From contig JBDRWA010000001.1 in NCBI GenBank assembly GCA_039802145.1, forward strand, positions 1 to 45,910: DNA of 45,910 nucleotides. The letters run 5' to 3'. Made by a program: the position numbers and the translations under genes. Positions 13,524-23,573 of this stretch are shown piece after piece (the first letter of the stretch is position 1; each line of letters starts with the position of its first letter). The stretch is from a candidate division WOR-3 bacterium. Lineage in GTDB: Bacteria; Hydrothermota; Tepidihabitantia; SM23-42; JAOAFX01. Below the pieces are notes generated by a model, which was not told where the DNA came from, did not search any database, and was given only the letters and a program-made list of their open reading frames with translations.

Positions 13524-14186
13524 ATGCCCAGAATAGCTCGTGGAATAGCCGACGGACTGACCTATCATATACTTAACCGAGGTAATGGTGGTCAGACGGT
13601 TTTTAGAAAAGACCAAGACTACAGGGTTTTTATTGAGTTAATGTCCTATGCAAAGTCTGAATTCAATATCAAAATATTTGCTTATTGTTTAATGCCTAAT
13701 CATTTCCATGTGGTTTTGATGCCGACAAAAGGTGAAAATTTAAGTAATTTTATGCATCTCGTTATGACGAGCCATGTGCGGCGCTATCATAAACATTATG
13801 GCACGAGCGGACATATATGGCAGGGAAGGTATAAAAGTTTTATTATCCAGGAGAATAACTATTTGTTAACAGCATTAAGATATGTTGAAGGAAACCCCGT
13901 GAGAGCGAATTTGGTGAAGTCAGCAATAAAATGGGAATGGTCATCGCATAGAGAGAGGATTAAATTAAAACCCAATGAATTATTGGCTGAACCCCCTATT
14001 GATTTACCATCCAACTGGACTGAATTCGTTGATGAACCATTATCTTTAAATGACTTAGAAAAAATAAGGAACAGCGTTATTCGCCAAGCCCCCTATGGTG
14101 AATTAGAATGGCAGATTAGTATCTGTAAAAATTTGAACTTAGAATCAACAATTAGACCAAGAGGCAGGCCTGCAAAATGGAAATAA
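13524..14186 (+). CDS. REP-associated tyrosine transposase-like (IS200/Y1 HUH) protein
   Basis: HUH motif LMPNHFHVVL and catalytic-Tyr helix LRYVEGNPVRANL. Length and layout are typical of single-copy RAYT-type genes. Confidence 0.8.
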   Translation: MPRIARGIADGLTYHILNRGNGGQTVFRKDQDYRVFIELMSYAKSEFNIKIFAYCLMPNHFHVVLMPTKGENLSNFMHLVMTSHVRRYHKHYGTSGHIWQGRYKSFIIQENNYLLTALRYVEGNPVRANLVKSAIKWEWSSHRERIKLKPNELLAEPPIDLPSNWTEFVDEPLSLNDLEKIRNSVIRQAPYGELEWQISICKNLNLESTIRPRGRPAKWK

Positions 14187-14207: not shown

Positions 14208-14531
14208 ATGACCAGAGAAGAATTTGAAAAGATCGTTGTAGAAGTTTTGAAAAGATTACCAAAGATTTTAAGTGAGAAACTGATAAATGTTGAGATAGTG
14301 ATTGAAGAAGAACCCATTCCACAAAAATCCCTTTTGGGTTTGTATCAGGGAGTGCCGTTGAGGAGAAGGGGAATATGGTATGGAAACGTTTTGCCTGATA
14401 AGATAACACTCTTTAAAGCGAATATTGAACGTCTGACAAACAATGAACAAGAAACAAAAGAACTCGTCTATGAAGTCTTGATTCACGAAATCGGTCATTA
14501 CTTCGGATTTGATGAAGAAGACCTCTTGTAA
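14208..14531 (+). CDS. Small zincin-like metallopeptidase family protein
   Basis: 107 aa with HEIGHYFGFDEEDL near the C-terminus, as in the Zincin_1/DUF1025 family. No SD; the ATG abuts the inverted repeat. Confidence 0.7.
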   Translation: MTREEFEKIVVEVLKRLPKILSEKLINVEIVIEEEPIPQKSLLGLYQGVPLRRRGIWYGNVLPDKITLFKANIERLTNNEQETKELVYEVLIHEIGHYFGFDEEDLL

Positions 14532-14533
14532 AT

Positions 14534-14631
14534 GGGTTGGGAAATGGGATAGGGTCGGAAGGATGGTTGATGGGTTGGGGTTTGGAATCTGGTATTGAAT
14601 TTGGTTAAATGGTAATTGGTAACTGGTTAAA
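14534..14631 (+). repeat. Degenerate G-rich tandem array with 7-nt phase (about 14 units), intergenic
   Basis: GG/GGG recurs every 7 nt, clearest at TGGTTAA/ATGGTAA/TTGGTAA/CTGGTTA (14602..14629). The 5' end is GGGTTGGGAAATGGGATAGGG. Confidence 0.7.
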
Positions 14632-14634
14632 TAT

Positions 14635-16878
14635 TTATCCATTTAACAATCTCTTCGCTTCCTGAGAATCCGGAATTATCTTCAAGACCTTCTGTAAAAT
14701 TTTTCGGGCGTCAGTTTTATTATTGTGCTCAAGACAGCTTTTTGCAAAATTTATCGCTTCGGTCTCAAACTGACTCAAAATTTTAAATCTCATATCCACT
14801 GACCAGTTATCAAAATTCTTTTTGAATGGTTCGCCGCGGAATAATTTAAATGCCCGTAAAAATTCTTTTCTTGCAAACTCCCACTCACCAGCCCGCTCTA
14901 ATGCCTTTGCCCTTGTAAGGGTCTCATTGAATTCCTGATAGTCAGTGGTAAAATATATTCCTTGATTGATTAACACTGAAGTGCCACTTCCACGAGATAT
15001 TTCCAATAAATGCGTCGGTATTTTTAATGTTTTTTTAATTCGGACCAATAGATGTGAAAAATTGCGCGATGCATTTTCACTTCCGGGCCAGAAATTCGCA
15101 TAAACTTTGTCCAAGTTTACAGATTTTTTTGGCTCCGTTGCATAAAAACTGAGAAATATTATGAATGTTTCATCTTTGGGCGCAAGTTCAACTCTCATAT
15201 CCTTACCGCACTTATCAATAATCAACTTACCCAAGAATTTGATTTCATAGACTGGAACATTTGTGTTAAATATGGGCAATCTTATTATTGCTCGCGGGAG
15301 TCTGGTCGGTTTTCCTTTTTCAAGATATTTGGTTACTACTTGAGGAAAGTAGAATATGTATTGATAGAAAAAACCCATAAGATTCCTGGATTTGGCATAT
15401 GAAAAAGCCCTGCGGTATGAACCTTCTATCATTATGTTCAAAAGTCGTGTGACAGGCATTGTATCTTTGTTCAATTGGGTATCAATTTTATTTTCTGAGA
15501 AATATTCTGTCAGCAAGATATATCTATTAAACACTGATTTTAGACCTCTGCCGGCGAAAGGTAGAATTTTCTTGATAATTTCAATCGCTTGTTTTTGTCT
15601 GCCAAGGCTACAATAAGCACTGGCAATAATTGAATATGCTGCAATAATATGTTTAAAAAGCTCCTCTTTTTTTGAAACAGTGATTGCCTCGTGGCAAAGA
15701 GAAATGGCTCGATTAGGTTTGCCGCTCACCAAAGACATCATTGCTTCAAAGATAAATCTTTTAGGCTGATGCGCCCACCATTGAAAATTTTCCATACTAC
15801 GGAGTAGATTAAGCGCTTTGCGATACTCTCCCTTGTAGAACAATATTTGCGCTAAGTCATCCATAATAAATTGTGCATCTTCCTCACTTGCTACTTTCAG
15901 AGTCTGGCTATACCAGTACTCAGCTTTACGGAAATTTTCTAAAAATATGTATAAGGCGCCTATATTATGGAGTAGGTCATAGGACCAAATATTTTTCCTT
16001 TTTCTTAACAACGTATGACATATTTTTGCTACCTCAGACGCATTCTTTATGCGGTTTAGATACACATTAGCAATACCTTCGCAGATTAAGAGGGTAATTT
16101 TAAGATAAAGCAGATCGCGGGACATCCTGATTTGGGTTTTTAATAAGGTTTTTAATTGTTTTATTCGTTTTAGCATTTCCTCGGGTTTGTTTATATATGA
16201 TAATACCGCTAAATAAGTAACTCCAATACGTAGCAATGAATAGCATAATCTATTCTTAATACACCATTTATAGATTTCTTTTATCTGTTTACGATAAATA
16301 GATAAAGGAACTTTTCCATACAATAGGATATATTTTTCCATTCTTCTCTTGATATTTAAAAGGGAATCTGGTACGTGGATGATTAGATCATTCTGTGGAA
16401 GAGCGGGTATTGAATTTAAGAGAGATGCAGCAGTTTGATAATCTTTTATTTCTATGCAACTTTTTGCACCTTCAATTTTCTTGGTCGCTTCAGTAGACCA
16501 TGAACAATTGTTAGGAAATTCTTTTAGTATTTTTCCATTTTCAAACCCTGCCAGGCCGTAGCGTTTCCATACTGACCAAATACCTTTTACCGAAATTTTA
16601 ATTCCTCTGCTGTGAAGAATATCTCTTGCTTTTCTTACAGTCAGAGCCGGACAACTTTCTTTAAGAAAAACAATCGTTTTTTCCAGATCAGTAGATATAC
16701 GGTTCCAGGGTCGCCTGTAGTCTGAATAAAACCAGGTTTTACCATATTTTTCATATGATTTTATCCACTTGTACAATGTCATGTAGTTCAGTCCAAACTG
16801 CCTTGCAGTTTTTCGCAACGATTGACCCTGTCTGATGTGGTATTGGACTATCTGAAACGAATAAGTTTTGTTACCCAT
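14635..16878 (-). CDS. Large regulator: N-terminal transposase-type paired HTH, central TPR-like solenoid, C-terminal winged-helix + BTAD (SARP-like)
   Basis: 747 aa. The N-terminus SLRKTARQFGLNYMTLYKWIKSYEKYG...TVRKARDILHSRGIKISVKGIWSVWKRYGL resembles IS630-type HTH pairs. TPR-like helices fill the middle. The C-terminus ...LLVRIKKTLK...YFTTDYQEF...LFRGEPFKKNFDNWSVDMRFKIL... fits an OmpR-type wHTH followed by BTAD. Confidence 0.7.
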   Translation of the reverse strand: MGNKTYSFQIVQYHIRQGQSLRKTARQFGLNYMTLYKWIKSYEKYGKTWFYSDYRRPWNRISTDLEKTIVFLKESCPALTVRKARDILHSRGIKISVKGIWSVWKRYGLAGFENGKILKEFPNNCSWSTEATKKIEGAKSCIEIKDYQTAASLLNSIPALPQNDLIIHVPDSLLNIKRRMEKYILLYGKVPLSIYRKQIKEIYKWCIKNRLCYSLLRIGVTYLAVLSYINKPEEMLKRIKQLKTLLKTQIRMSRDLLYLKITLLICEGIANVYLNRIKNASEVAKICHTLLRKRKNIWSYDLLHNIGALYIFLENFRKAEYWYSQTLKVASEEDAQFIMDDLAQILFYKGEYRKALNLLRSMENFQWWAHQPKRFIFEAMMSLVSGKPNRAISLCHEAITVSKKEELFKHIIAAYSIIASAYCSLGRQKQAIEIIKKILPFAGRGLKSVFNRYILLTEYFSENKIDTQLNKDTMPVTRLLNIMIEGSYRRAFSYAKSRNLMGFFYQYIFYFPQVVTKYLEKGKPTRLPRAIIRLPIFNTNVPVYEIKFLGKLIIDKCGKDMRVELAPKDETFIIFLSFYATEPKKSVNLDKVYANFWPGSENASRNFSHLLVRIKKTLKIPTHLLEISRGSGTSVLINQGIYFTTDYQEFNETLTRAKALERAGEWEFARKEFLRAFKLFRGEPFKKNFDNWSVDMRFKILSQFETEAINFAKSCLEHNNKTDARKILQKVLKIIPDSQEAKRLLNG

Positions 16879-16887
16879 AGTGGAAAC

Positions 16888-16915
16888 ATTGTAGCCAATT
16901 TTTCAAAAAAGTCAA
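16888..16915 (-). promoter_or_regulatory. Sigma70-type promoter, near-leaderless (TTGACT-16-TACAAT, 9 nt to ATG at 16878)
   Basis: Read on the reverse complement: -35 at 16915..16910, -10 at 16893..16888. No SD. Confidence 0.65.
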
Positions 16916-17051
16916 GAATTCAATAACAAATTGCATGAAATATTGAGAAATCAATCTTTTCAATAAATGCTTGTGGATAAACTCAGACACAATTCCATTT
17001 ATAATTAAGTATAAGAAAGTTAAATTTTAAAAAATTAGAAAGGAGGTTCAA

Positions 17052-18611
17052 ATGTTATTAGGTTTTGCTTTTGTCTTTACCAGTATACTATTTGCACAGA
17101 CCGAAAGGTGGGTCTACCGGTATAACGGACCTGGAAATAGCCATGACTATGCTCATTCAATTGTCTATGGAATGGATGGGAATATCTATGCGGCGGGACA
17201 GAGTTTTGGTGGAGAACCAGCGCGGAGTGATTTCACAGTGATAAGTTTGACTTCTACAGGAACCCAGAGATGGGTTTATCGTTATCCTAATCATTACGAA
17301 GATAATGCGTGGGCGATCACATATGGGCAGGATCATAATATTTATGCAGCTGGATATGTCAATGGGACCGCTATGGATTTAGCAATTATAAGTCTAACAT
17401 CTTCTGGAGCTCTAAGGTGGATTTATACACACAACGGTCCTTTAAATAGCGATGATTATGCAGTGTCAATCATTCAGGGTTCTGATGGGAATATATATGC
17501 TGCTGGCAGAAGTGGTGGAATAAGTACTCACGATTTATTCGTTGTGAGTCTAACACCTTCTGGAACTGAAAGATGGGTCTATTACTATGATGGGTCCGCA
17601 CACTTGCTTGACGCGGCTTATTCCATAAGTTATGGCCCAGATGGAAATTTATACATTGCTGGTCATGGCGGCGGTGGAGCAGGGCGTCATTTCATTGTTT
17701 TGAGTCTTACAACATCTGGTGAATTAAGATGGGTTTATGATAACGGAGGCACTAATGATTGGATGAGCTATGCTTATTCACTTACATTTGACCAATTGGG
17801 TAATGTCTATGCGTGTGGTTATATCTGGTATACTGGTAGTTGGTCTGATTTCACGGTGGTCAAACTGGACACAAGTGGTAACGAGCAGTGGATTTACCGG
17901 TATAATAGTCCCTGGAATGGTTATGAAGGTGCCTATTCAATTGTCTATGGTGCGGATGGAAATATCTATGCAGCGGGCGCAGGTACATCTGCTAACACGA
18001 GTTTCAACGATTTGCTGGTTATCAGCCTCACTCCTGCTGGCGAAGAGAGATGGATTTATTATTATGGCAGTCCTTCCGGTCTGAATGATGGTGCCGAAGA
18101 GATCGTGTACGGAGATAATGGGAAACTCTACATCACGGGTTATTGCACAGTTAGTTCTAATGCCGAAGATTGGGATATGATTGTAATTGAAATGGACACA
18201 AATGGTGTGGCAAACTGGATATACAGATACGATGGACCTGGGCATTATAAAGACCAGGGTGAAGGAATTGTTTTTGGCTCTGACAATAATATTTATGTGG
18301 CTGGATGGAGTTGCGGAGCAAACCAGGATTTTCTTATTTTGAGTTTGACTGCATCATTAGATATTGCAGAAACATTAATGCAATCAAAATTTGTCTATCC
18401 ATCAACTCATCGTGCAGTTCCCAATCCCTTCTTCTCCTTCACTTCTATAGAAGGGTATGAAAATGAGCAGTTTCAACTTTTTGATGCATCAGGACGATAT
18501 ATTGGTGTGTACAAAGGTGACCGCATCGGCGATAATCTTCCTGCTGGATTATATTTTGTAGTATCTGATGACAAAAGTATTCTGCCTGCACGGGTGGTGA
18601 AGATAAGATAA
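17052..18611 (+). CDS. Secreted SBBP-type beta-propeller repeat protein with T9SS C-terminal sorting domain
   Basis: 519 aa with signal-like MLLGFAFVFTSILFAQ. About eight ~50-aa repeats (RWVYRYNGPG...YA.SIVYG.DGNIYAAG...DF.VISLT..G). Tail PNPFFSF...LFDASGR...LPAGLYFVV...VVKIR. AGGAGG SD. Confidence 0.85.
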   Translation: MLLGFAFVFTSILFAQTERWVYRYNGPGNSHDYAHSIVYGMDGNIYAAGQSFGGEPARSDFTVISLTSTGTQRWVYRYPNHYEDNAWAITYGQDHNIYAAGYVNGTAMDLAIISLTSSGALRWIYTHNGPLNSDDYAVSIIQGSDGNIYAAGRSGGISTHDLFVVSLTPSGTERWVYYYDGSAHLLDAAYSISYGPDGNLYIAGHGGGGAGRHFIVLSLTTSGELRWVYDNGGTNDWMSYAYSLTFDQLGNVYACGYIWYTGSWSDFTVVKLDTSGNEQWIYRYNSPWNGYEGAYSIVYGADGNIYAAGAGTSANTSFNDLLVISLTPAGEERWIYYYGSPSGLNDGAEEIVYGDNGKLYITGYCTVSSNAEDWDMIVIEMDTNGVANWIYRYDGPGHYKDQGEGIVFGSDNNIYVAGWSCGANQDFLILSLTASLDIAETLMQSKFVYPSTHRAVPNPFFSFTSIEGYENEQFQLFDASGRYIGVYKGDRIGDNLPAGLYFVVSDDKSILPARVVKIR

Positions 18612-18627
18612 AACCAGTCCCTTTCTG

Positions 18628-18659
18628 TCCCCTGGGGTGCCTGAAGGCACCCCAGGGGA
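18628..18659 (+). terminator. 14-bp GC-rich hairpin after cargo gene (TCCCCTGGGGTGCC-tgaa-GGCACCCCAGGGGA)
   Basis: Perfect stem read directly. The downstream T-tract is weak (TTATACATT). A near-identical copy is at 23594..23623. Confidence 0.6.
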
Positions 18660-18772
18660 TTATACATTGCGCTTAGAAGCAGCTCATTAGATAAATCTGA
18701 AAGGAGATATGGTATTTGGGTTTAGGTTTGGAAATGGAAACTGTCTGTATTTATTTGTTTGGACTGCAAAAC

Positions 18773-18833
18773 AATGTAGGGCAAGGCTTTAGCCTTGCAA
18801 CAAAAATAAGCAAACCTAAAGGTTTGCCCTACA
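18773..18833. repeat. Small nested palindromic element (TGTAGGGCAA...TTGCCCTACA arms enclosing CAAGGCTTTAGCCTTG hairpin)
   Basis: 10-nt inverted arms at 18775..18784 and 18824..18833, with an inner 7-bp hairpin. The first 26 nt recur (25/26) inside a coding region at 31947..31972. Confidence 0.7.
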
Positions 18834-18867
18834 ATGTAATTAACCATAAAACCATCTACCCACCCAA

Positions 18868-21102
18868 CTATCCAACCATCAAGCCATCCAACAATCCCTT
18901 CACTTCTTGTGAATCCGGAATTATCTTCAAGACTTTTTGTAGTATTTTTCGTGCATCATTTTTGTTCCCGTGTTCAAGGCAGCTCTTGGCAAAATTTATC
19001 GCCTCAGTCTCAAGCTGCGTTAAAATCTTAAATCTCATGTCCACTGACCAGTTATCAAAATTCTTCTTAAACGGCTCACCGCGGAATAACTTGAATGCCC
19101 GTAAGTATTCTTTGCGAGCGATACCCCACTCCCCTGCCCGCTCCAGTGCCTTTGCCCGGGCTAAAGTTTGTCCAAATTCCTGATAGTCGGTGGTAAAATA
19201 AATGTTTTGATTGATTAGATAAGATTCCCCGTTCTGTCTTTTTATCTCTAAATAATGGGCAGGAATTTTAAGAGCCCTTTTTATTCGGACTAAACTGTGG
19301 GAGAAAATCCTTGCTGGATTCTTACTTTTTGACCAGAAATTTTCGTAGAGTTCATTTAAATTCAATGATTTTTCTGGTTCATTGATTCTGGTGATAATAA
19401 ACAAAAGTATTGCACTATCCTTTGGCGAAAGATGGAATTTGTGATATCTTTGATTGCGGAAAATGGTTATTTTGCCTAATAAATTTATATGGTAAACATC
19501 GGTTTTTGTATTAAATATCGGCAGGCGCAGAATTGCCTTAGGTAGATAAGTTGGTTTATTCTTTGCAATCCTTTTCTGAACAAAATCGGGGTAGAAGAAT
19601 AGATAACGATAAAAATAAAACAGGATGCCTTTCCTGACGGCAAACTGATATGCCCCCATATAACCCCTGTTTTTTAATACCCAGGCAAGTTTGATTGTAG
19701 ATAATTTGAAAAATTCTTTATTTTGTGGAATTTTTTGCAGGAGGATGTTGGTAATCAACAACTGCCTTTTCATATTTCTTTTTTTCAAAAATTTCTTCAA
19801 GTTAGCCAATAATGACTTTGCTTTTTCTTCCTCCCCAAAACACATATATGCACTTGCCATTGCCAGATAGGCATTGTTGATATCGGTCAGAAGTCCTGCT
19901 CCTTTTGAGGCATTTAGGGCATTCTGTGCTAAGATAAATGCCTCTGATGGTCTACCTTCAATCAAGGCAAAAAGGGACCGGAATCTTGATAACTGGGCAT
20001 CTTTTGCCCAATCATAAATTTCTGCTTCATTTATAAGTTTCAATGCAGTATTTTTATCGCACCTCAATAAATGAACATAAATCGCAAGCAGCGTCTTCAA
20101 CCTTTTCTTTCTTTGCTCGTCAATACCTTCAAGGGATTTGAGAAGCAGTTTTTCTGCAGTATTATAATCTTCAAGGTCTATGAACTGGACCGCAAGGTCA
20201 TAGAGGAATTCATAAAATGGACTTTTGTGTTGTGATACAAGATGATAGCAATGACGGGCAAGACGGAATGCTTCAGTCAATTTTAACATTTGCACCAGGG
20301 TGTGGCATTTTGAAATAAGTAAGGTAAAACGAATTGGCATTAAATCTTTTGCTTTTCTATCATTGTCAGGTAGAGATTTTTCAATTTTTTCTGTCCATCT
20401 CTTTTGTTCTTCAGGATTGCCAAGCCAGGATAATGCAACAAGCAAAGCCATACCAATTCTTAATGCCGAATAATTCCACTCATTCTTGATAGATTTTTTA
20501 TAGAGTATTTTTGCTTTTTTGATATATTCCGACAATGGGATTTTGCCGAATTCCATTGTCAATCTTTCAATCTTGCGCCTTGTATTCAAGAGTTTTTCCG
20601 GTAATTTTAAAACTAATTCATTCTTTGGTAGCGGGGGTAAGGAATTTAAAATTATCGCTGATTCTTTCATTTTGCCATCATTAAATAGCCGCTCTGCATC
20701 TTCTAACTTTAACTTTGTTTCCTGAGAAGGAATAATGAATTCGGTAAAGTCATTGCAAATGTTCAAACGATCAAAGCCAGAATATCCATATCTTTTCCAG
20801 ATATTCCATATTCCACGGCTGGTGATTTTTATTTTCTTCTTGAGCAATACCCTCCGTGTCTGTTCCAGCGTGAGCCAGGGATATTTTTCTTTATACTTTA
20901 TGACGAAATTTTCAATATACTTTGGGGAGCGATTCCAGGGTTTAAAAAGCGGTTGTGTTTTAAATTTTTTAAAATACTTCAACCATTTATAAACCGTCTG
21001 ATAATGGAGATTAAATTTTTTTGCGGTCTTTCTGATTGAAGATTTATTTTTAAAATATTCGTCAATGACCCCATAAAATAATTCTCTTTGTTTGTTATGC
21101 AT
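18868..21102 (-). CDS. Paralogous large regulator: paired HTH, TPR-like, winged-helix + BTAD
   Basis: 744 aa, collinear with 14635..16878. By manual count, 90 of 100 aligned residues are identical across the BTAD region starting at IYFTTDYQEF (ten residues before the C-terminus), and the rest is much more diverged. Confidence 0.7.
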   Translation of the reverse strand: MHNKQRELFYGVIDEYFKNKSSIRKTAKKFNLHYQTVYKWLKYFKKFKTQPLFKPWNRSPKYIENFVIKYKEKYPWLTLEQTRRVLLKKKIKITSRGIWNIWKRYGYSGFDRLNICNDFTEFIIPSQETKLKLEDAERLFNDGKMKESAIILNSLPPLPKNELVLKLPEKLLNTRRKIERLTMEFGKIPLSEYIKKAKILYKKSIKNEWNYSALRIGMALLVALSWLGNPEEQKRWTEKIEKSLPDNDRKAKDLMPIRFTLLISKCHTLVQMLKLTEAFRLARHCYHLVSQHKSPFYEFLYDLAVQFIDLEDYNTAEKLLLKSLEGIDEQRKKRLKTLLAIYVHLLRCDKNTALKLINEAEIYDWAKDAQLSRFRSLFALIEGRPSEAFILAQNALNASKGAGLLTDINNAYLAMASAYMCFGEEEKAKSLLANLKKFLKKRNMKRQLLITNILLQKIPQNKEFFKLSTIKLAWVLKNRGYMGAYQFAVRKGILFYFYRYLFFYPDFVQKRIAKNKPTYLPKAILRLPIFNTKTDVYHINLLGKITIFRNQRYHKFHLSPKDSAILLFIITRINEPEKSLNLNELYENFWSKSKNPARIFSHSLVRIKRALKIPAHYLEIKRQNGESYLINQNIYFTTDYQEFGQTLARAKALERAGEWGIARKEYLRAFKLFRGEPFKKNFDNWSVDMRFKILTQLETEAINFAKSCLEHGNKNDARKILQKVLKIIPDSQEVKGLLDGLMVG

Positions 21103-21111
21103 CTGCGGTAA

Positions 21112-21140
21112 ATTATATACTATAATGCAGAATATGTCAA
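21112..21140 (-). promoter_or_regulatory. Sigma70-type promoter, near-leaderless (TTGACA-17-TATAAT, 9 nt to ATG at 21102)
   Basis: Read on the reverse complement: -35 at 21140..21135, -10 at 21117..21112. Same geometry as the paralogue. Confidence 0.7.
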
Positions 21141-21248
21141 GTAATTATAATATGTATCGCTGTAACCAGTAATTAACTATTGCGATTGTGTTGTGTGTGG
21201 TTAATTTGGGACACATTTATATGTAAATATTTAGAGAAAGGGGGTATT

Positions 21249-23573
21249 ATGAAAATTGGAATTTGGTTTGGTATGTTCTTAATCGTTTCTTTTGTTCATT
21301 CAGCTAACCTCCCCTGGACCTGGCAGAATCCATTACCTGAAGGTAATGAATACACTGATGTCTGTGTAATCAACGAAAATATTATTTTTGTTGTTGAAGA
21401 AGAGGCAGGAACCATTTTAAAGACGACAAATGGTGGCTTGGCCTGGGATGTAAGTTTCACACCTTATCCTGATTCCCAGCCTGGTTATTATGAACTTTAT
21501 GGTATTGATTTTCCTGATTCGCTAACTGGCTATGCAGTCGGTAATTTCTGGGGTTCAAACTGGAATACAACATATCATGCTGTAATTTTAAAAACCACAA
21601 ACCAGGGTGCAACCTGGACATTCCAGTATCTTGGCGCACAGAATACCTGGCTTATGGATGTTGATTTTCCGCAGGGAAATAATCAGGTCGGATATGCAGT
21701 AGGGAGAAATGGAATGATATTAAAAACGACAAATGGTGGGCAGAGTTGGGTTCAGCAAAATTCTGGCACAACCTATGAATTGCTTGCAGTACATTTTCCC
21801 GTTGATGCAAATACTGGATATGTTGTTGGTGGGAATAGAACTACAACCCCGGTAATCTTAAAAACAACAAACGGTGGTTCCAACTGGAATAGCCAGACAA
21901 GTCCAGCAAATGTGACTTACTGGGATGTGTGTTTTATTGATAATCAGAACGGTTATGCAGGGGGGTATACATTAGGTAGTGGTGGCAATGGTACAATTAT
22001 TAAAACAACCAATGGAGGTAGTACGTGGCAACAGATATGGTATCAACAATACCGTGAAATTTATTCAGTACATTTTTTGAATGCCCAGGTCGGGTATGCC
22101 GGTGGTTGGGCACACTCAAATTCGGGCTGGAGTGGAAGTTTCATTATGAAAACAACAAACGAAGGTAGTAGCTGGACTCCAGTCTTTCTTCCGAAATTTA
22201 TGACCTATGTTTTACCGATTGGTTTTGCCAATACACTGACTGGTTATGCTGCAGGATATGTCTATGACCAGAATGGTGGCCATGGCCAACTTTTGAAAAC
22301 TACGGATGCGGGCACATCCTGGATTTTCTTAAATACAGGTCCTGAAGGAATTTTTTGGGCTGTTGATTTTCCGGAGAGCGACCAAATTGGTTATGCGGTT
22401 GGCGATGCAGGATATATATACAAGACAACTGATGGAGGTGCAACCTGGGTACAGCAAACAACAGGAACCGGGCAGGTATTCTATGATGTTGATTTTCTTG
22501 ATAATCAACTCGGTTTTGCAGTTGGTGCTAATGGAACATTTTTCAAGACAACAAACGGTGGTAATGTCTGGACTCCAAAAAATGCAAATACTACAGCCAC
22601 CCTGTATGCAGTGAAATTCATAAATTCGCAAATTGGTTACATTGCTGGACTGGGAAGTACTGGTGGAGTGATAATGAAGTCTACGGATGGAGGTGATAAC
22701 TGGATAAGTCAGACCATCCCTAACAATAATACTTATCGGGCAATTCAGGATTTATTTTTCTTTAATGCGGATACTGGTTATGCAGTTGCGGGTGCCACAC
22801 CTTCTTATGGTGGTGCAGTTGGACTTGTATATAAAACCACTAATGGTGGTCAGACCTGGGTTGAAAACTATGCACCATCTTCAGCAAATTTCTATGCCAT
22901 AGATTTTCCAGAAAATTCACAGGTTGGTTATATTTCAGGTTTAATGGGAGGTACCGGGACTTATAAAATGATAAAGACAACCAATGGGGGCAATTCCTGG
23001 ACAGGACAAAGCCTGGGGGGTGGTATTGTTCCCGCTGTTGGTGTATCCTTTGCAGATAATCTCATTGGTTATGCGGTATTCAGACCTGGTGGATACCATA
23101 TGATGATGAAGACAACGAATGGTGGTTCAAACTGGTTTGCTATCAATTCTCTGACCTGGCACGGTTATGAGGATATCCAGGCGATCAATGCAAATGTCGT
23201 TTATGCAGTTGGCAGGGGCGGAATGATCCGCAAGACAACAAATGGTGGAAGCGTTTGGATTGAGGAAGAAAAAGGTGATGGAGATATAAAGGTGGATAAT
23301 CATTATCAAAGTTTGTGGGTCTATCCTAATCCATTCAGGAACAATGTCCATATCAGATGCAGGATGCATGATACAGGATACATGATAAAGATATACGATG
23401 TTTCGGGACGTGTTGTAAAATCTTTCAATCTTGAATCCTGTATCCTGAATCATGAATCCAGTATCACCTGGTTCGGCGATGATAAGCTGGGACGTGAATT
23501 GCCTGCAGGTGTTTATTTTATCGTGCCTGAGGATAAAAGTTCGTCGCCCGTGCGGGTGGTGAAGATAAGATAA
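21249..23573 (+). CDS. Secreted BNR/Ycf48-like double beta-propeller protein with T9SS C-terminal sorting domain
   Basis: I prefer the start at ATG 21249 (AAGGGGG SD, then signal-like MKIGIWFGMFLIVSFVHSA) over the track start 21180. There are 14 repeats of the (I/L)xKTTNGGxxW motif. Tail NPFRNN...IKIYDVSGR...LPAGVYFIV...VVKIR. Confidence 0.85.
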   Translation: MKIGIWFGMFLIVSFVHSANLPWTWQNPLPEGNEYTDVCVINENIIFVVEEEAGTILKTTNGGLAWDVSFTPYPDSQPGYYELYGIDFPDSLTGYAVGNFWGSNWNTTYHAVILKTTNQGATWTFQYLGAQNTWLMDVDFPQGNNQVGYAVGRNGMILKTTNGGQSWVQQNSGTTYELLAVHFPVDANTGYVVGGNRTTTPVILKTTNGGSNWNSQTSPANVTYWDVCFIDNQNGYAGGYTLGSGGNGTIIKTTNGGSTWQQIWYQQYREIYSVHFLNAQVGYAGGWAHSNSGWSGSFIMKTTNEGSSWTPVFLPKFMTYVLPIGFANTLTGYAAGYVYDQNGGHGQLLKTTDAGTSWIFLNTGPEGIFWAVDFPESDQIGYAVGDAGYIYKTTDGGATWVQQTTGTGQVFYDVDFLDNQLGFAVGANGTFFKTTNGGNVWTPKNANTTATLYAVKFINSQIGYIAGLGSTGGVIMKSTDGGDNWISQTIPNNNTYRAIQDLFFFNADTGYAVAGATPSYGGAVGLVYKTTNGGQTWVENYAPSSANFYAIDFPENSQVGYISGLMGGTGTYKMIKTTNGGNSWTGQSLGGGIVPAVGVSFADNLIGYAVFRPGGYHMMMKTTNGGSNWFAINSLTWHGYEDIQAINANVVYAVGRGGMIRKTTNGGSVWIEEEKGDGDIKVDNHYQSLWVYPNPFRNNVHIRCRMHDTGYMIKIYDVSGRVVKSFNLESCILNHESSITWFGDDKLGRELPAGVYFIVPEDKSSSPVRVVKIR
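23354..23394 (+). repeat. In-frame 7-nt-phased array in T9SS tail, loop 1 (CAGGATG/CATGATA/CAGGATA/CATGATA/AAGATAT)
   Basis: Units read directly; they encode RCRMHDTGYMIKI just before the IYDVSGR strand. Confidence 0.75.
23432..23466 (+). repeat. In-frame 7-nt tandem array in T9SS tail, loop 2 (TGAATCC/TGTATCC/TGAATCA/TGAATCC/AGTATCA)
   Basis: Five contiguous heptamers read directly; they encode LESCILNHESSI. Confidence 0.8.

Follow-up and report, generated by a model that had tools for sequence, protein, structure and literature searches.

The 45,910-nucleotide stretch of candidate division WOR-3 DNA analysed here (the window) carries, at 14635..16878 on the minus strand, the gene for a 747-amino acid (aa) protein, P0001, in which a transposase-type pair of helix-turn-helix (HTH) motifs, a tetratricopeptide repeat (TPR) solenoid and a SARP unit, the latter consisting of a winged helix-turn-helix (wHTH) and a BTAD domain, follow one another from the N-terminus to the C-terminus. 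SARP units are activators of antibiotic pathways in actinobacteria. P0001 belongs to a lineage-specific, multi-copy family of SARP regulators which are inverted in their domain order, lack the NOD module and carry a domesticated transposase arm. The genes of this family generally lie head-to-head with genes for secreted proteins bearing a type IX secretion system (T9SS) sorting tail, and a conserved box is found ahead of these partner genes, 8 nucleotides from their -10 element. With its order of transposase-derived HTH pair, TPR region and SARP unit, each such protein is probably a one-component activator dedicated to the T9SS-cargo beta-propeller gene that diverges from it.

Domain architecture of P0001

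The P0001 protein has a predicted mass of 87.7 kDa and a pI of 9.8, and its reading frame begins with ATG. Its parts are located as follows:

14635..16878, minus strand: regulator gene P0001, with HTH pair, TPR solenoid and SARP unit (open reading frame and translation)
16543..16869, minus strand: paired HTH, residues 4-112 (HTH_28, HTH_23 and HTH_32; IS481 model; AlphaFold helices)
15283..16494, minus strand: TPR-like helical solenoid, residues 129-532 (TPR_12; all-helical AlphaFold model)
14944..15258, minus strand: OmpR-type winged HTH, residues 541-645 (models; Foldseek matches to AfsR and EmbR; Trans_reg_C in relatives)
14638..14943, minus strand: shortened BTAD-like domain, residues 646-747, five helices (sub-threshold Pfam BTAD; Foldseek match with AfsR)

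The full-length AlphaFold model has a pLDDT of 87.1 and a pTM of 0.78. The peptides quoted in a preliminary description of this DNA, which was made from the sequence alone, were located at residues 20, 80 and 99, and the three-part order proposed there is borne out by profiles and structure together. The same holds for the inverted order that it pointed out: the SARP unit takes up residues 541-747 of 747, while in all three canonical classes of SARP (small, medium and large) it is N-terminal, being followed in the large ones by an NB-ARC domain and then by TPR (PMC10972967, PMC10936776). The absence of a P-loop was also correctly noted. Neither NB-ARC nor AAA has a Pfam match in P0001 at E <= 1, and a Walker A pattern is seen in just 3 of 60 family members.

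Judged from the structural models, the C-terminal wHTH and BTAD unit is real, a matter settled by structure rather than by profiles. The profile check put forward in the preliminary description for this end of the protein nearly failed at the Pfam thresholds: BTAD reached 19.5 bits (E 1.3e-3), its cut-off being 22.1, with residues 645-696 aligned to positions 1-52 of the 146 in the model, and Trans_reg_C gave no match in P0001 itself. Among 60 family members, BTAD was matched in 14 and Trans_reg_C in 9. In the PDB, a phmmer search with P0001 turned up nothing but TPR noise, the full-family profile found only TPR proteins there, and the profile of the C-terminal module gave only matches at E 0.1-1, including the wHTH domains of CadC and PmrA. 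Because whole-chain Foldseek comparison was dominated by the TPR solenoid, the C-terminal module (residues 535-747, 213 residues) was refolded alone from an alignment of 24 sequences, yielding a model with a pLDDT of 91.3 and a pTM of 0.85. Foldseek comparison of this model with the PDB gave six matches at E < 1e-3, every one of them a SARP unit: AfsR (8k60/8hvr; E 1.3e-6, TM 0.74-0.75 and a root-mean-square deviation of 3.3-3.5 A over ~207 columns) and, for the remainder, EmbR of M. tuberculosis (2fez/2ff4). The seventh match was already at E 0.07. In the models of the wHTH, residues 543-645 form a beta-sheet, three helices and a beta-hairpin. Family members hardly differ in the recognition helix at 603-617, ASRNFSHLLVRIKKT, in which N606, H609, L610 and L611 are conserved.

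As in the SARPs (AfsR, ActII-ORF4, RedD and DnrI, as well as EmbR), an OmpR-type wHTH is followed directly by the BTAD in one rigid unit, and a TPR domain is also carried by the large SARPs. The differences lie in the C-terminal rather than N-terminal location of the unit, in the extra HTH pair at the N-terminus, in the missing NB-ARC/NOD ATPase that large SARPs possess, in a BTAD of only ~100 residues that matches just the first 52 of the 146 model positions, and in a sequence similarity that stays under the Pfam thresholds. The setting differs as well, the hosts being candidate division WOR-3 bacteria rather than Actinomycetota and the neighbouring genes encoding T9SS cargo rather than belonging to biosynthetic clusters.

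At the other end of the protein, the preliminary description had seen a transposase-type paired HTH of the IS630/Tc1 kind. The first part of that claim stands. HTH_28 (residues 9-46; E 8.6e-8, 32.6 bits against a cut-off of 25) and HTH_23 (25.0 bits, barely above its cut-off of 24.6) both exceed the Pfam thresholds, HTH_32 spans residues 34-104, and HTH_28 is present in 59 of 60 family members. The nearest transposase family, going by the profile scores, is however IS481 and not IS630/Tc1: positions 4-110 of the 284 in the NCBIfam IS481 model correspond to residues 9-112 of P0001 with an E value of 1.6e-12, compared with 8.2e-6 for the IS630 model, and the IS3 model is likewise weaker. All of these transposase models match the DNA-binding arm alone and stay far below their cut-offs (whole-model score 47.6 bits, where 224 would be required), and DDE, rve and DDE_3 catalytic domains have no Pfam match in P0001 at E <= 1. 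No significant match to the N-terminal family profile was found in the PDB.

In the AlphaFold model this arm is made up of two three-helix HTH motifs (helices 4-17, 21-27 and 32-45, then 63-75, 81-90 and 97-106) joined by a linker, Y(K/R)RPWNR at residues 54-60, which is invariant in the family and of low confidence in the model; we take it to resemble the minor-groove-binding GRPR-type linker of Tc1/mariner arms. Residues W38, P57, R60, G99, W104 and R106 are invariant across the family alignment, and with a mean column identity of 0.66-0.73 the module is among the best-conserved parts of the protein. Two three-helix HTH motifs with a short conserved basic linker are shared with the arms of IS481 and IS630-Tc1 transposases. 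Unlike these enzymes, P0001 has no DDE domain, its arm is joined in one protein with TPR and SARP modules, and the copies within the family are diverged and syntenic instead of mobile. The IS481-type arm, the lack of DDE and the syntenic, only 26-66% identical copies are in line with the earlier suggestion that the DNA-binding domain of a transposase was domesticated and recruited to what would be an activator.

Between the two DNA-binding modules, Pfam TPR_12 matches residues 302-360 (E 1.2e-13), along with further TPR families; TPR_MalT stays below its threshold. Foldseek with the whole chain recovered only TPR proteins, including subunits of APC, IFT-A, NprR, Rap and domain III of MalT. The compact matches among them, with E values from 2e-4 to 1e-3, were NprR (5dbk and 4gpk; TMt 0.50-0.61), RapF (4i9c), MalT domain III (1hz4) and 4gyo, in which a Rap protein is bound to competence and sporulation factor. 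Generic TPR proteins such as the APC subunits and IFT-A equal or outscore these, making the similarity unspecific. The compact matches may point to a ligand- or peptide-binding input domain, and the solenoid is presumed to act as a sensor or oligomerisation domain. The RRNPP proteins (NprR/PlcR/Rap) likewise begin with an HTH that leads into a long TPR superhelix, and the sensor domain III of MalT may be compared with them, but the HTH of the RRNPP proteins is of the XRE type rather than a transposase-type pair, and they have no C-terminal DNA-binding unit.

A lineage-specific, multi-copy family

The preliminary description had treated this gene as a singular oddity, which it is not: P0001 is one member of a multi-copy family, confined to its lineage and paired with T9SS-cargo genes. 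Some 70 or more full-length homologues were found, at 33-57% identity; all of the named sources are candidate division WOR-3, and many of the proteins have been named "transposase" by JGI. When the profile of the C-terminal module was searched against 1.84 billion representative proteins, 133 clusters (at 50% identity) were obtained at E <= 1e-30, nearly all of them 700-790 aa long with the module at ~530-745, and even at E <= 1e-3 only 494 proteins were matched. The SARP unit is C-terminal in all of the full-length relatives. The architecture is that of a conserved family and not of a one-off fusion.

Members were detected in 13 of the 121 WOR-3 genomes searched, which vary in completeness; these 13 fall into five families and have 1-9 copies each. 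The host genome of the window (2.0 Mb, 86% complete) has about nine paralogs, mutually 26-66% identical, of which a second one is found within the window:

18868..21102, minus strand: paralogous regulator P0002, 744 aa, same architecture (same Pfam pattern)

P0002 is 42% identical to P0001 overall.

Head-to-head partner genes

Each of the two regulator genes in the window has a divergent neighbour, in agreement with a separate earlier claim that two tandem regulator-cargo modules are present here:

17052..18611, plus strand: divergent partner gene of P0001, 519 aa, with signal peptide, SBBP-like beta-propeller repeats and T9SS-like tail (weak SBBP match)
21249..23573, plus strand: partner of P0002, with BNR/Ycf48/sortilin-type beta-propellers and T9SS sorting tail (PSII_BNR, E 1.3e-33; Por_Secre_tail, E 4e-6)

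The tail of the first of these has no Pfam match of its own and is linked to bona fide tails by BLAST alone; it shares 75% identity with the C33 partner's tail and matches that of the 21249 gene (Por_Secre_tail) with E 6e-10. The second probably starts at the ATG at 21249, after GAAAGGGGG, and not at the TTG at 21180 that was chosen by the open reading frame (ORF) finder.

The same arrangement is seen throughout the host genome, where all seven of the evaluable paralogs are head-to-head with a gene encoding a signal peptide, a beta-propeller and a T9SS-type tail. Three of these seven tails (C1a, C33 and C11) escaped a strict tail HMM derived from other genomes; those of C1a and C33 are tied to Pfam-positive tails by BLAST alone, and that of C11, which BLAST did not connect with any Pfam-positive tail, is T9SS-like by eye only. 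For the other genomes, the 3.5 kb upstream of 20 regulators from six genomes were examined. Seventeen of these could be evaluated and 15 are paired head-to-head with a gene for a protein with signal peptide and T9SS tail, and in all nine of the partners that were searched with Pfam the tail matched Por_Secre_tail, FlgD_ig or CHU_C. Such tails are found in 68 of 1428 ORFs of the host genome (4.8%), and against this background 15 of 17 would be expected by chance with p ~2e-18 (binomial). The pairing was also seen in contigs L022 and L024.

The passenger portions of the partners are mutually unrelated and include Kelch, RCC1, PQQ/BamB-like and sortilin/BNR propellers as well as a C25 gingipain-type peptidase. 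Only one pair of regulators, C1b and C60, is closely related (66% identity), and the partners of these two share 66-67% identity, indicating that regulator and cargo gene were duplicated together. Genes for the SprA translocon and the PorU sortase are found in the host genome, so a T9SS is present there. Perhaps by coincidence, the gene for the SprA/Sov translocon itself (C11:8343-13784, 1813 aa) has one of the paralogs (G000 C11:3235-5526) ~3 kb upstream of it.

In Bacteroidota, SusR or hybrid two-component systems adjoin polysaccharide-utilisation loci, these regulators sitting beside the genes they serve, and PorXY/SigP exerts global control over T9SS machinery and cargo. The likeness of the P0001 family to such regulators of surface and secretion loci is one of function only, in that there are many paralogs, each next to the gene it would serve; SusR, the hybrid two-component systems and PorXY-SigP all belong to protein families unrelated to that of P0001. 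No SARP-type regulator linked to T9SS was found in the literature searched, and searches on this architecture, on T9SS regulation in WOR-3, on COG3947 and on bacterial regulators from domesticated transposases, which were in part ill-framed, returned nothing relevant.

Promoters and conserved elements of the intergenic regions

When the divergent intergenic regions were aligned by eye, two conserved elements emerged, one between the regulator gene and its own -10 element and the other in the promoter of the partner. In the window these are found, with the associated promoters, at the following positions:

16888..16915, minus strand: own sigma-70-type promoter of P0001, TTGACT, 16-nt spacer, TACAAT (10/12 consensus)
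21112..21140, minus strand: promoter of P0002, TTGACA, 17-nt spacer, TATAAT, 9 nt to ATG (the only 12/12 consensus site in 14400-21400)
16879..16887, minus strand: 9-nt conserved stretch GTTTCCACT between the -10 and the ATG of P0001 (candidate second operator)
16977..17006, plus strand: box of the P0001 partner, ATAAACTCAGACACAATTCCATT, with TATAAT (top genome-wide matrix match)
21205..21229, plus strand: box of the P0002 partner, TTTGGGACACATTTATATG, with TAAATA (7.7 bits, top 2.7% of upstream regions)

Read along the strand of the regulator, the pattern across genera is TTGAC(A/T)-N16-17-TATAAT-(G/T)TTTCC(A/G)C, with the ATG 0-4 nt later; in P0002 the counterpart of the conserved stretch between -10 and ATG lies at 21103-21111. 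The (G/T)TTTCC(A/G)C element has been kept in at least 12 loci from several genera (including L051-L063), with 9-13 nt between the -10 and the ATG. Since the ATG of the regulator comes 9 nt after the -10, its mRNA should be leaderless or nearly so, and since the conservation of the element exceeds what a promoter needs, it may serve as an operator or else mark the mRNA for leaderless translation.

Ahead of the partner genes the pattern is a different one. The box at 16977-17006 has its ACACA core at 16987-16991 and its -10 at 17000-17005, the core lying 8 nt ahead of the latter; in that of the P0002 partner the ACACA is at 21211-21215, again 8 nt before a -10-like hexamer at 21224-21229. Fifteen sites from other genomes give the consensus AAAATnAnACACAATTT-N4-TATAAT, with the ACACA ending 8 nt before the -10. 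Some 11-12 nt upstream of the ACACA core, the sites share another conserved block, which is rich in A. No -35 element, and no sigma-70 site with a -35, was called on the plus strand ahead of either partner gene in the window. In the promoter rule for SARPs stated in a study of AfsR, the direct repeats are spaced by 11 or 22 bp, the 3' repeat is 8 bp from the -10 and the repeats overlap a poor -35 (PMC10936776). Both the position of the box, 8 nt upstream of the -10 as in the SARPs, and the missing -35 are in keeping with this rule.

A matrix made solely from the 15 sites of other genomes was scanned over both strands of the host genome, 4 million positions in all. The best match anywhere was the box at 16977-17006, with 23.5 bits, the runner-up having 18.3, and seven of the nine paralog intergenic regions are in the top 5% of 1358 upstream regions. 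The 55 tail-bearing genes that have no adjoining regulator score no differently from background (p 0.79), and they are outscored by the partner genes with p 1.5e-5. On that account the box was rejected as a general promoter element of cargo genes.

Outside the regulator loci, the next-best intergenic matches are at G000 C74:11176 (minus strand, 17.7 bits), where the match overlaps the called ORF start of another T9SS-tail gene, and at C13:6083 (minus strand, 17.1 bits); these may be extra targets or orphaned boxes.

Proposed mode of action and alternatives

For a dedicated activator of the divergent cargo gene, the following sequence of events may be envisaged. The regulator would be expressed from its near-consensus sigma-70 promoter as a leaderless mRNA, and its C-terminal wHTH and BTAD unit would bind the ACACA box within the spacer of the -35-less partner promoter, 8 nt from the -10; the near-invariant recognition helix is consistent with the common core of the box. 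In AfsR, a side-by-side dimer contacts region 4 of sigma as well as the core enzyme (PMC10936776). Like the AfsR unit, that of P0001 might in this way replace the missing -35 contact and recruit RNA polymerase, a mechanism referred to as "sigma adaptation". The P-loop-less TPR solenoid would provide for signal input, self-association or both. The N-terminal HTH pair could make a second contact with the DNA, the likeliest site being the (G/T)TTTCC(A/G)C element at the start of the regulator's own gene, with autoregulation or bridging of the two back-to-back promoters as the outcome. As to the DNA looping suggested in the preliminary description, which is a possibility, the two conserved DNA elements could serve the two DNA-binding modules, neither element being tied to either module. 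More tentatively, and with a good deal less confidence than in the activator role as such, one may picture a hitherto unrecognised regulatory system for T9SS cargo outside the Bacteroidota, in which activators with two DNA-binding modules would each be tied in cis to a single cargo gene, with sigma adaptation by the SARP unit at the cargo promoter, the IS481-type arm at the regulator's own promoter, and bridging of these promoters, ~100 bp apart, under the control of the TPR region.

Several observations speak against a dedicated activator working through its SARP unit. The BTAD match of P0001 is below the Pfam cut-off, Trans_reg_C is not matched in it and the BTAD is shortened to ~100 residues. 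In the box, the 11-bp direct repeats of SARP operators are not evident (self-match z = 0.0 at offset 11 and 2.4 at offset 12); its scores are modest, at 4-10 bits, for several of the paralogs, and the sites in other genomes had been anchored by eye before the matrix was constructed. A cargo partner is missing at 2 of the 17 evaluable loci of other genomes and at L023. Binding of the box by the HTH pair at the N-terminus is just as conceivable, and recognition helices that are nearly invariant leave it unexplained how each of nine paralogs would be specific for its own partner.

Some of these points would be accommodated if the modules were swapped or the sign reversed, that is, if the HTH pair were to read the ACACA box much as a transposase arm reads a terminal repeat, with repression or autoregulation as the result, and the C-terminal SARP-like unit were to bind elsewhere or be mainly a surface for protein interaction. 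We regard this as unlikely, though worth serious thought. In its favour, few parts of the protein are as conserved as the N-terminal module, and invariant aromatic and basic residues are found in both of its recognition helices and in the linker; the lack of evident SARP-type direct repeats and the sub-threshold Pfam support for the wHTH and BTAD in P0001 point the same way, and the existence of a second conserved DNA element leaves the assignment of elements to modules free. On the other hand, the box is at the SARP position, 8 nt from the -10 of a promoter with no -35, a spacing that a repressor or distal binder would not need, and the recognition helix of the wHTH is as conserved as those of the N-terminal pair.

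It is distinctly improbable that the ACACA box has nothing to do with the regulator, being instead a site for an alternative sigma or some other trans-acting factor while the regulator acts, for example, on distant targets. Such a view draws on the modest scores in several paralog regions and on good matrix matches elsewhere, such as the one at C74:11176 upstream of another cargo gene and that at C13:6083. It does not account for the fact that the box follows adjacency to a regulator rather than the cargo class, the 55 regulator-less genes being at background, nor for the location of the top genome-wide match in the very intergenic region between P0001 and its partner, the joint conservation of box and pairing across genera and the duplication of regulator and cargo gene together.

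That the gene is simply a transposase, or a decaying or mobile derivative of one that became multi-copy through transposition, is suggested by the JGI name of many members, the matches of the arm to IS481, IS630 and IS3 models, the presence of about nine copies in a 2-Mb genome and the nearby IS200-like gene at 13524-14186, but is refuted by the lack of a DDE/rve or any other catalytic domain, by models that match over their first ~110 positions only, by the TPR and SARP nature of the remaining 630 residues, by copies that are 26-66% identical rather than near-identical, by purifying selection, which has conserved length and architecture across more than 130 clusters, and by fixed synteny with the partner genes.

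An activator built as described here would extend both the taxonomic and the architectural range of sigma adaptation, with a structurally clear SARP unit at the C-terminus of proteins from an uncultured and distantly related phylum. In this family the unit occurs without the NOD ATPase that gates the large SARPs and is fused to a transposase-derived arm, so that the family also illustrates cleanly how the DNA-binding domain of a transposase can be domesticated in bacteria; its members are misnamed "transposase" in dozens of database entries. The pairing of one regulator with one cargo gene, together with a predicted operator, offers a testable handle on the control of T9SS cargo genes in WOR-3, a group of uncultured bacteria from hot springs and sediments.

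Paralogs, fragments and neighbouring genes

Region by region, P0001 and P0002 are 35, 30, 52 and 87% identical, the last figure applying to the BTAD-like end (14638-14943 compared with 18880-19203), where the protein identity of 87% contrasts with 30-52% elsewhere. This step had been reported in a separate earlier claim and is indeed there; recent gene conversion of the BTAD ends was rejected as its explanation, the DNA similarity between the two genes being confined to 338 nt at just 81%, with many silent differences, and undetectable elsewhere. The pattern suggests an old exchange or a constraint specific to the subfamily. The homologue P0005, from another source, has the same C-terminal end as the two paralogs of the window.

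The BTAD end was also encountered on its own. Two short free-standing ORFs, G000 C60:6680-6877 (L011) and G066 C17:1243-1536, of 73 and 107 aa, correspond to no more of the family than its final ~65-100 residues, one of them lying 1 kb downstream of a full-length paralog, and many proteins of ~100-140 aa in the library of 1.84 billion match the BTAD end only. These could be fragments or independent small proteins.

Three otherwise full-length members contain an in-frame stop (G093 C8:18774-21020, G048 C16:38224-40470 and G002 C2:6520-8691). It is TAA in two sister genomes, where the gene is apparently the same one, and TGA in the other; pseudogenes, sequencing errors or read-through may be responsible.

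The IS200-like gene mentioned above, 450 nt downstream of the stop codon of P0001, encodes a Y1 (HUH) transposase and is not part of the regulator. A Y1_Tnp gene is also found near the family member in L024.

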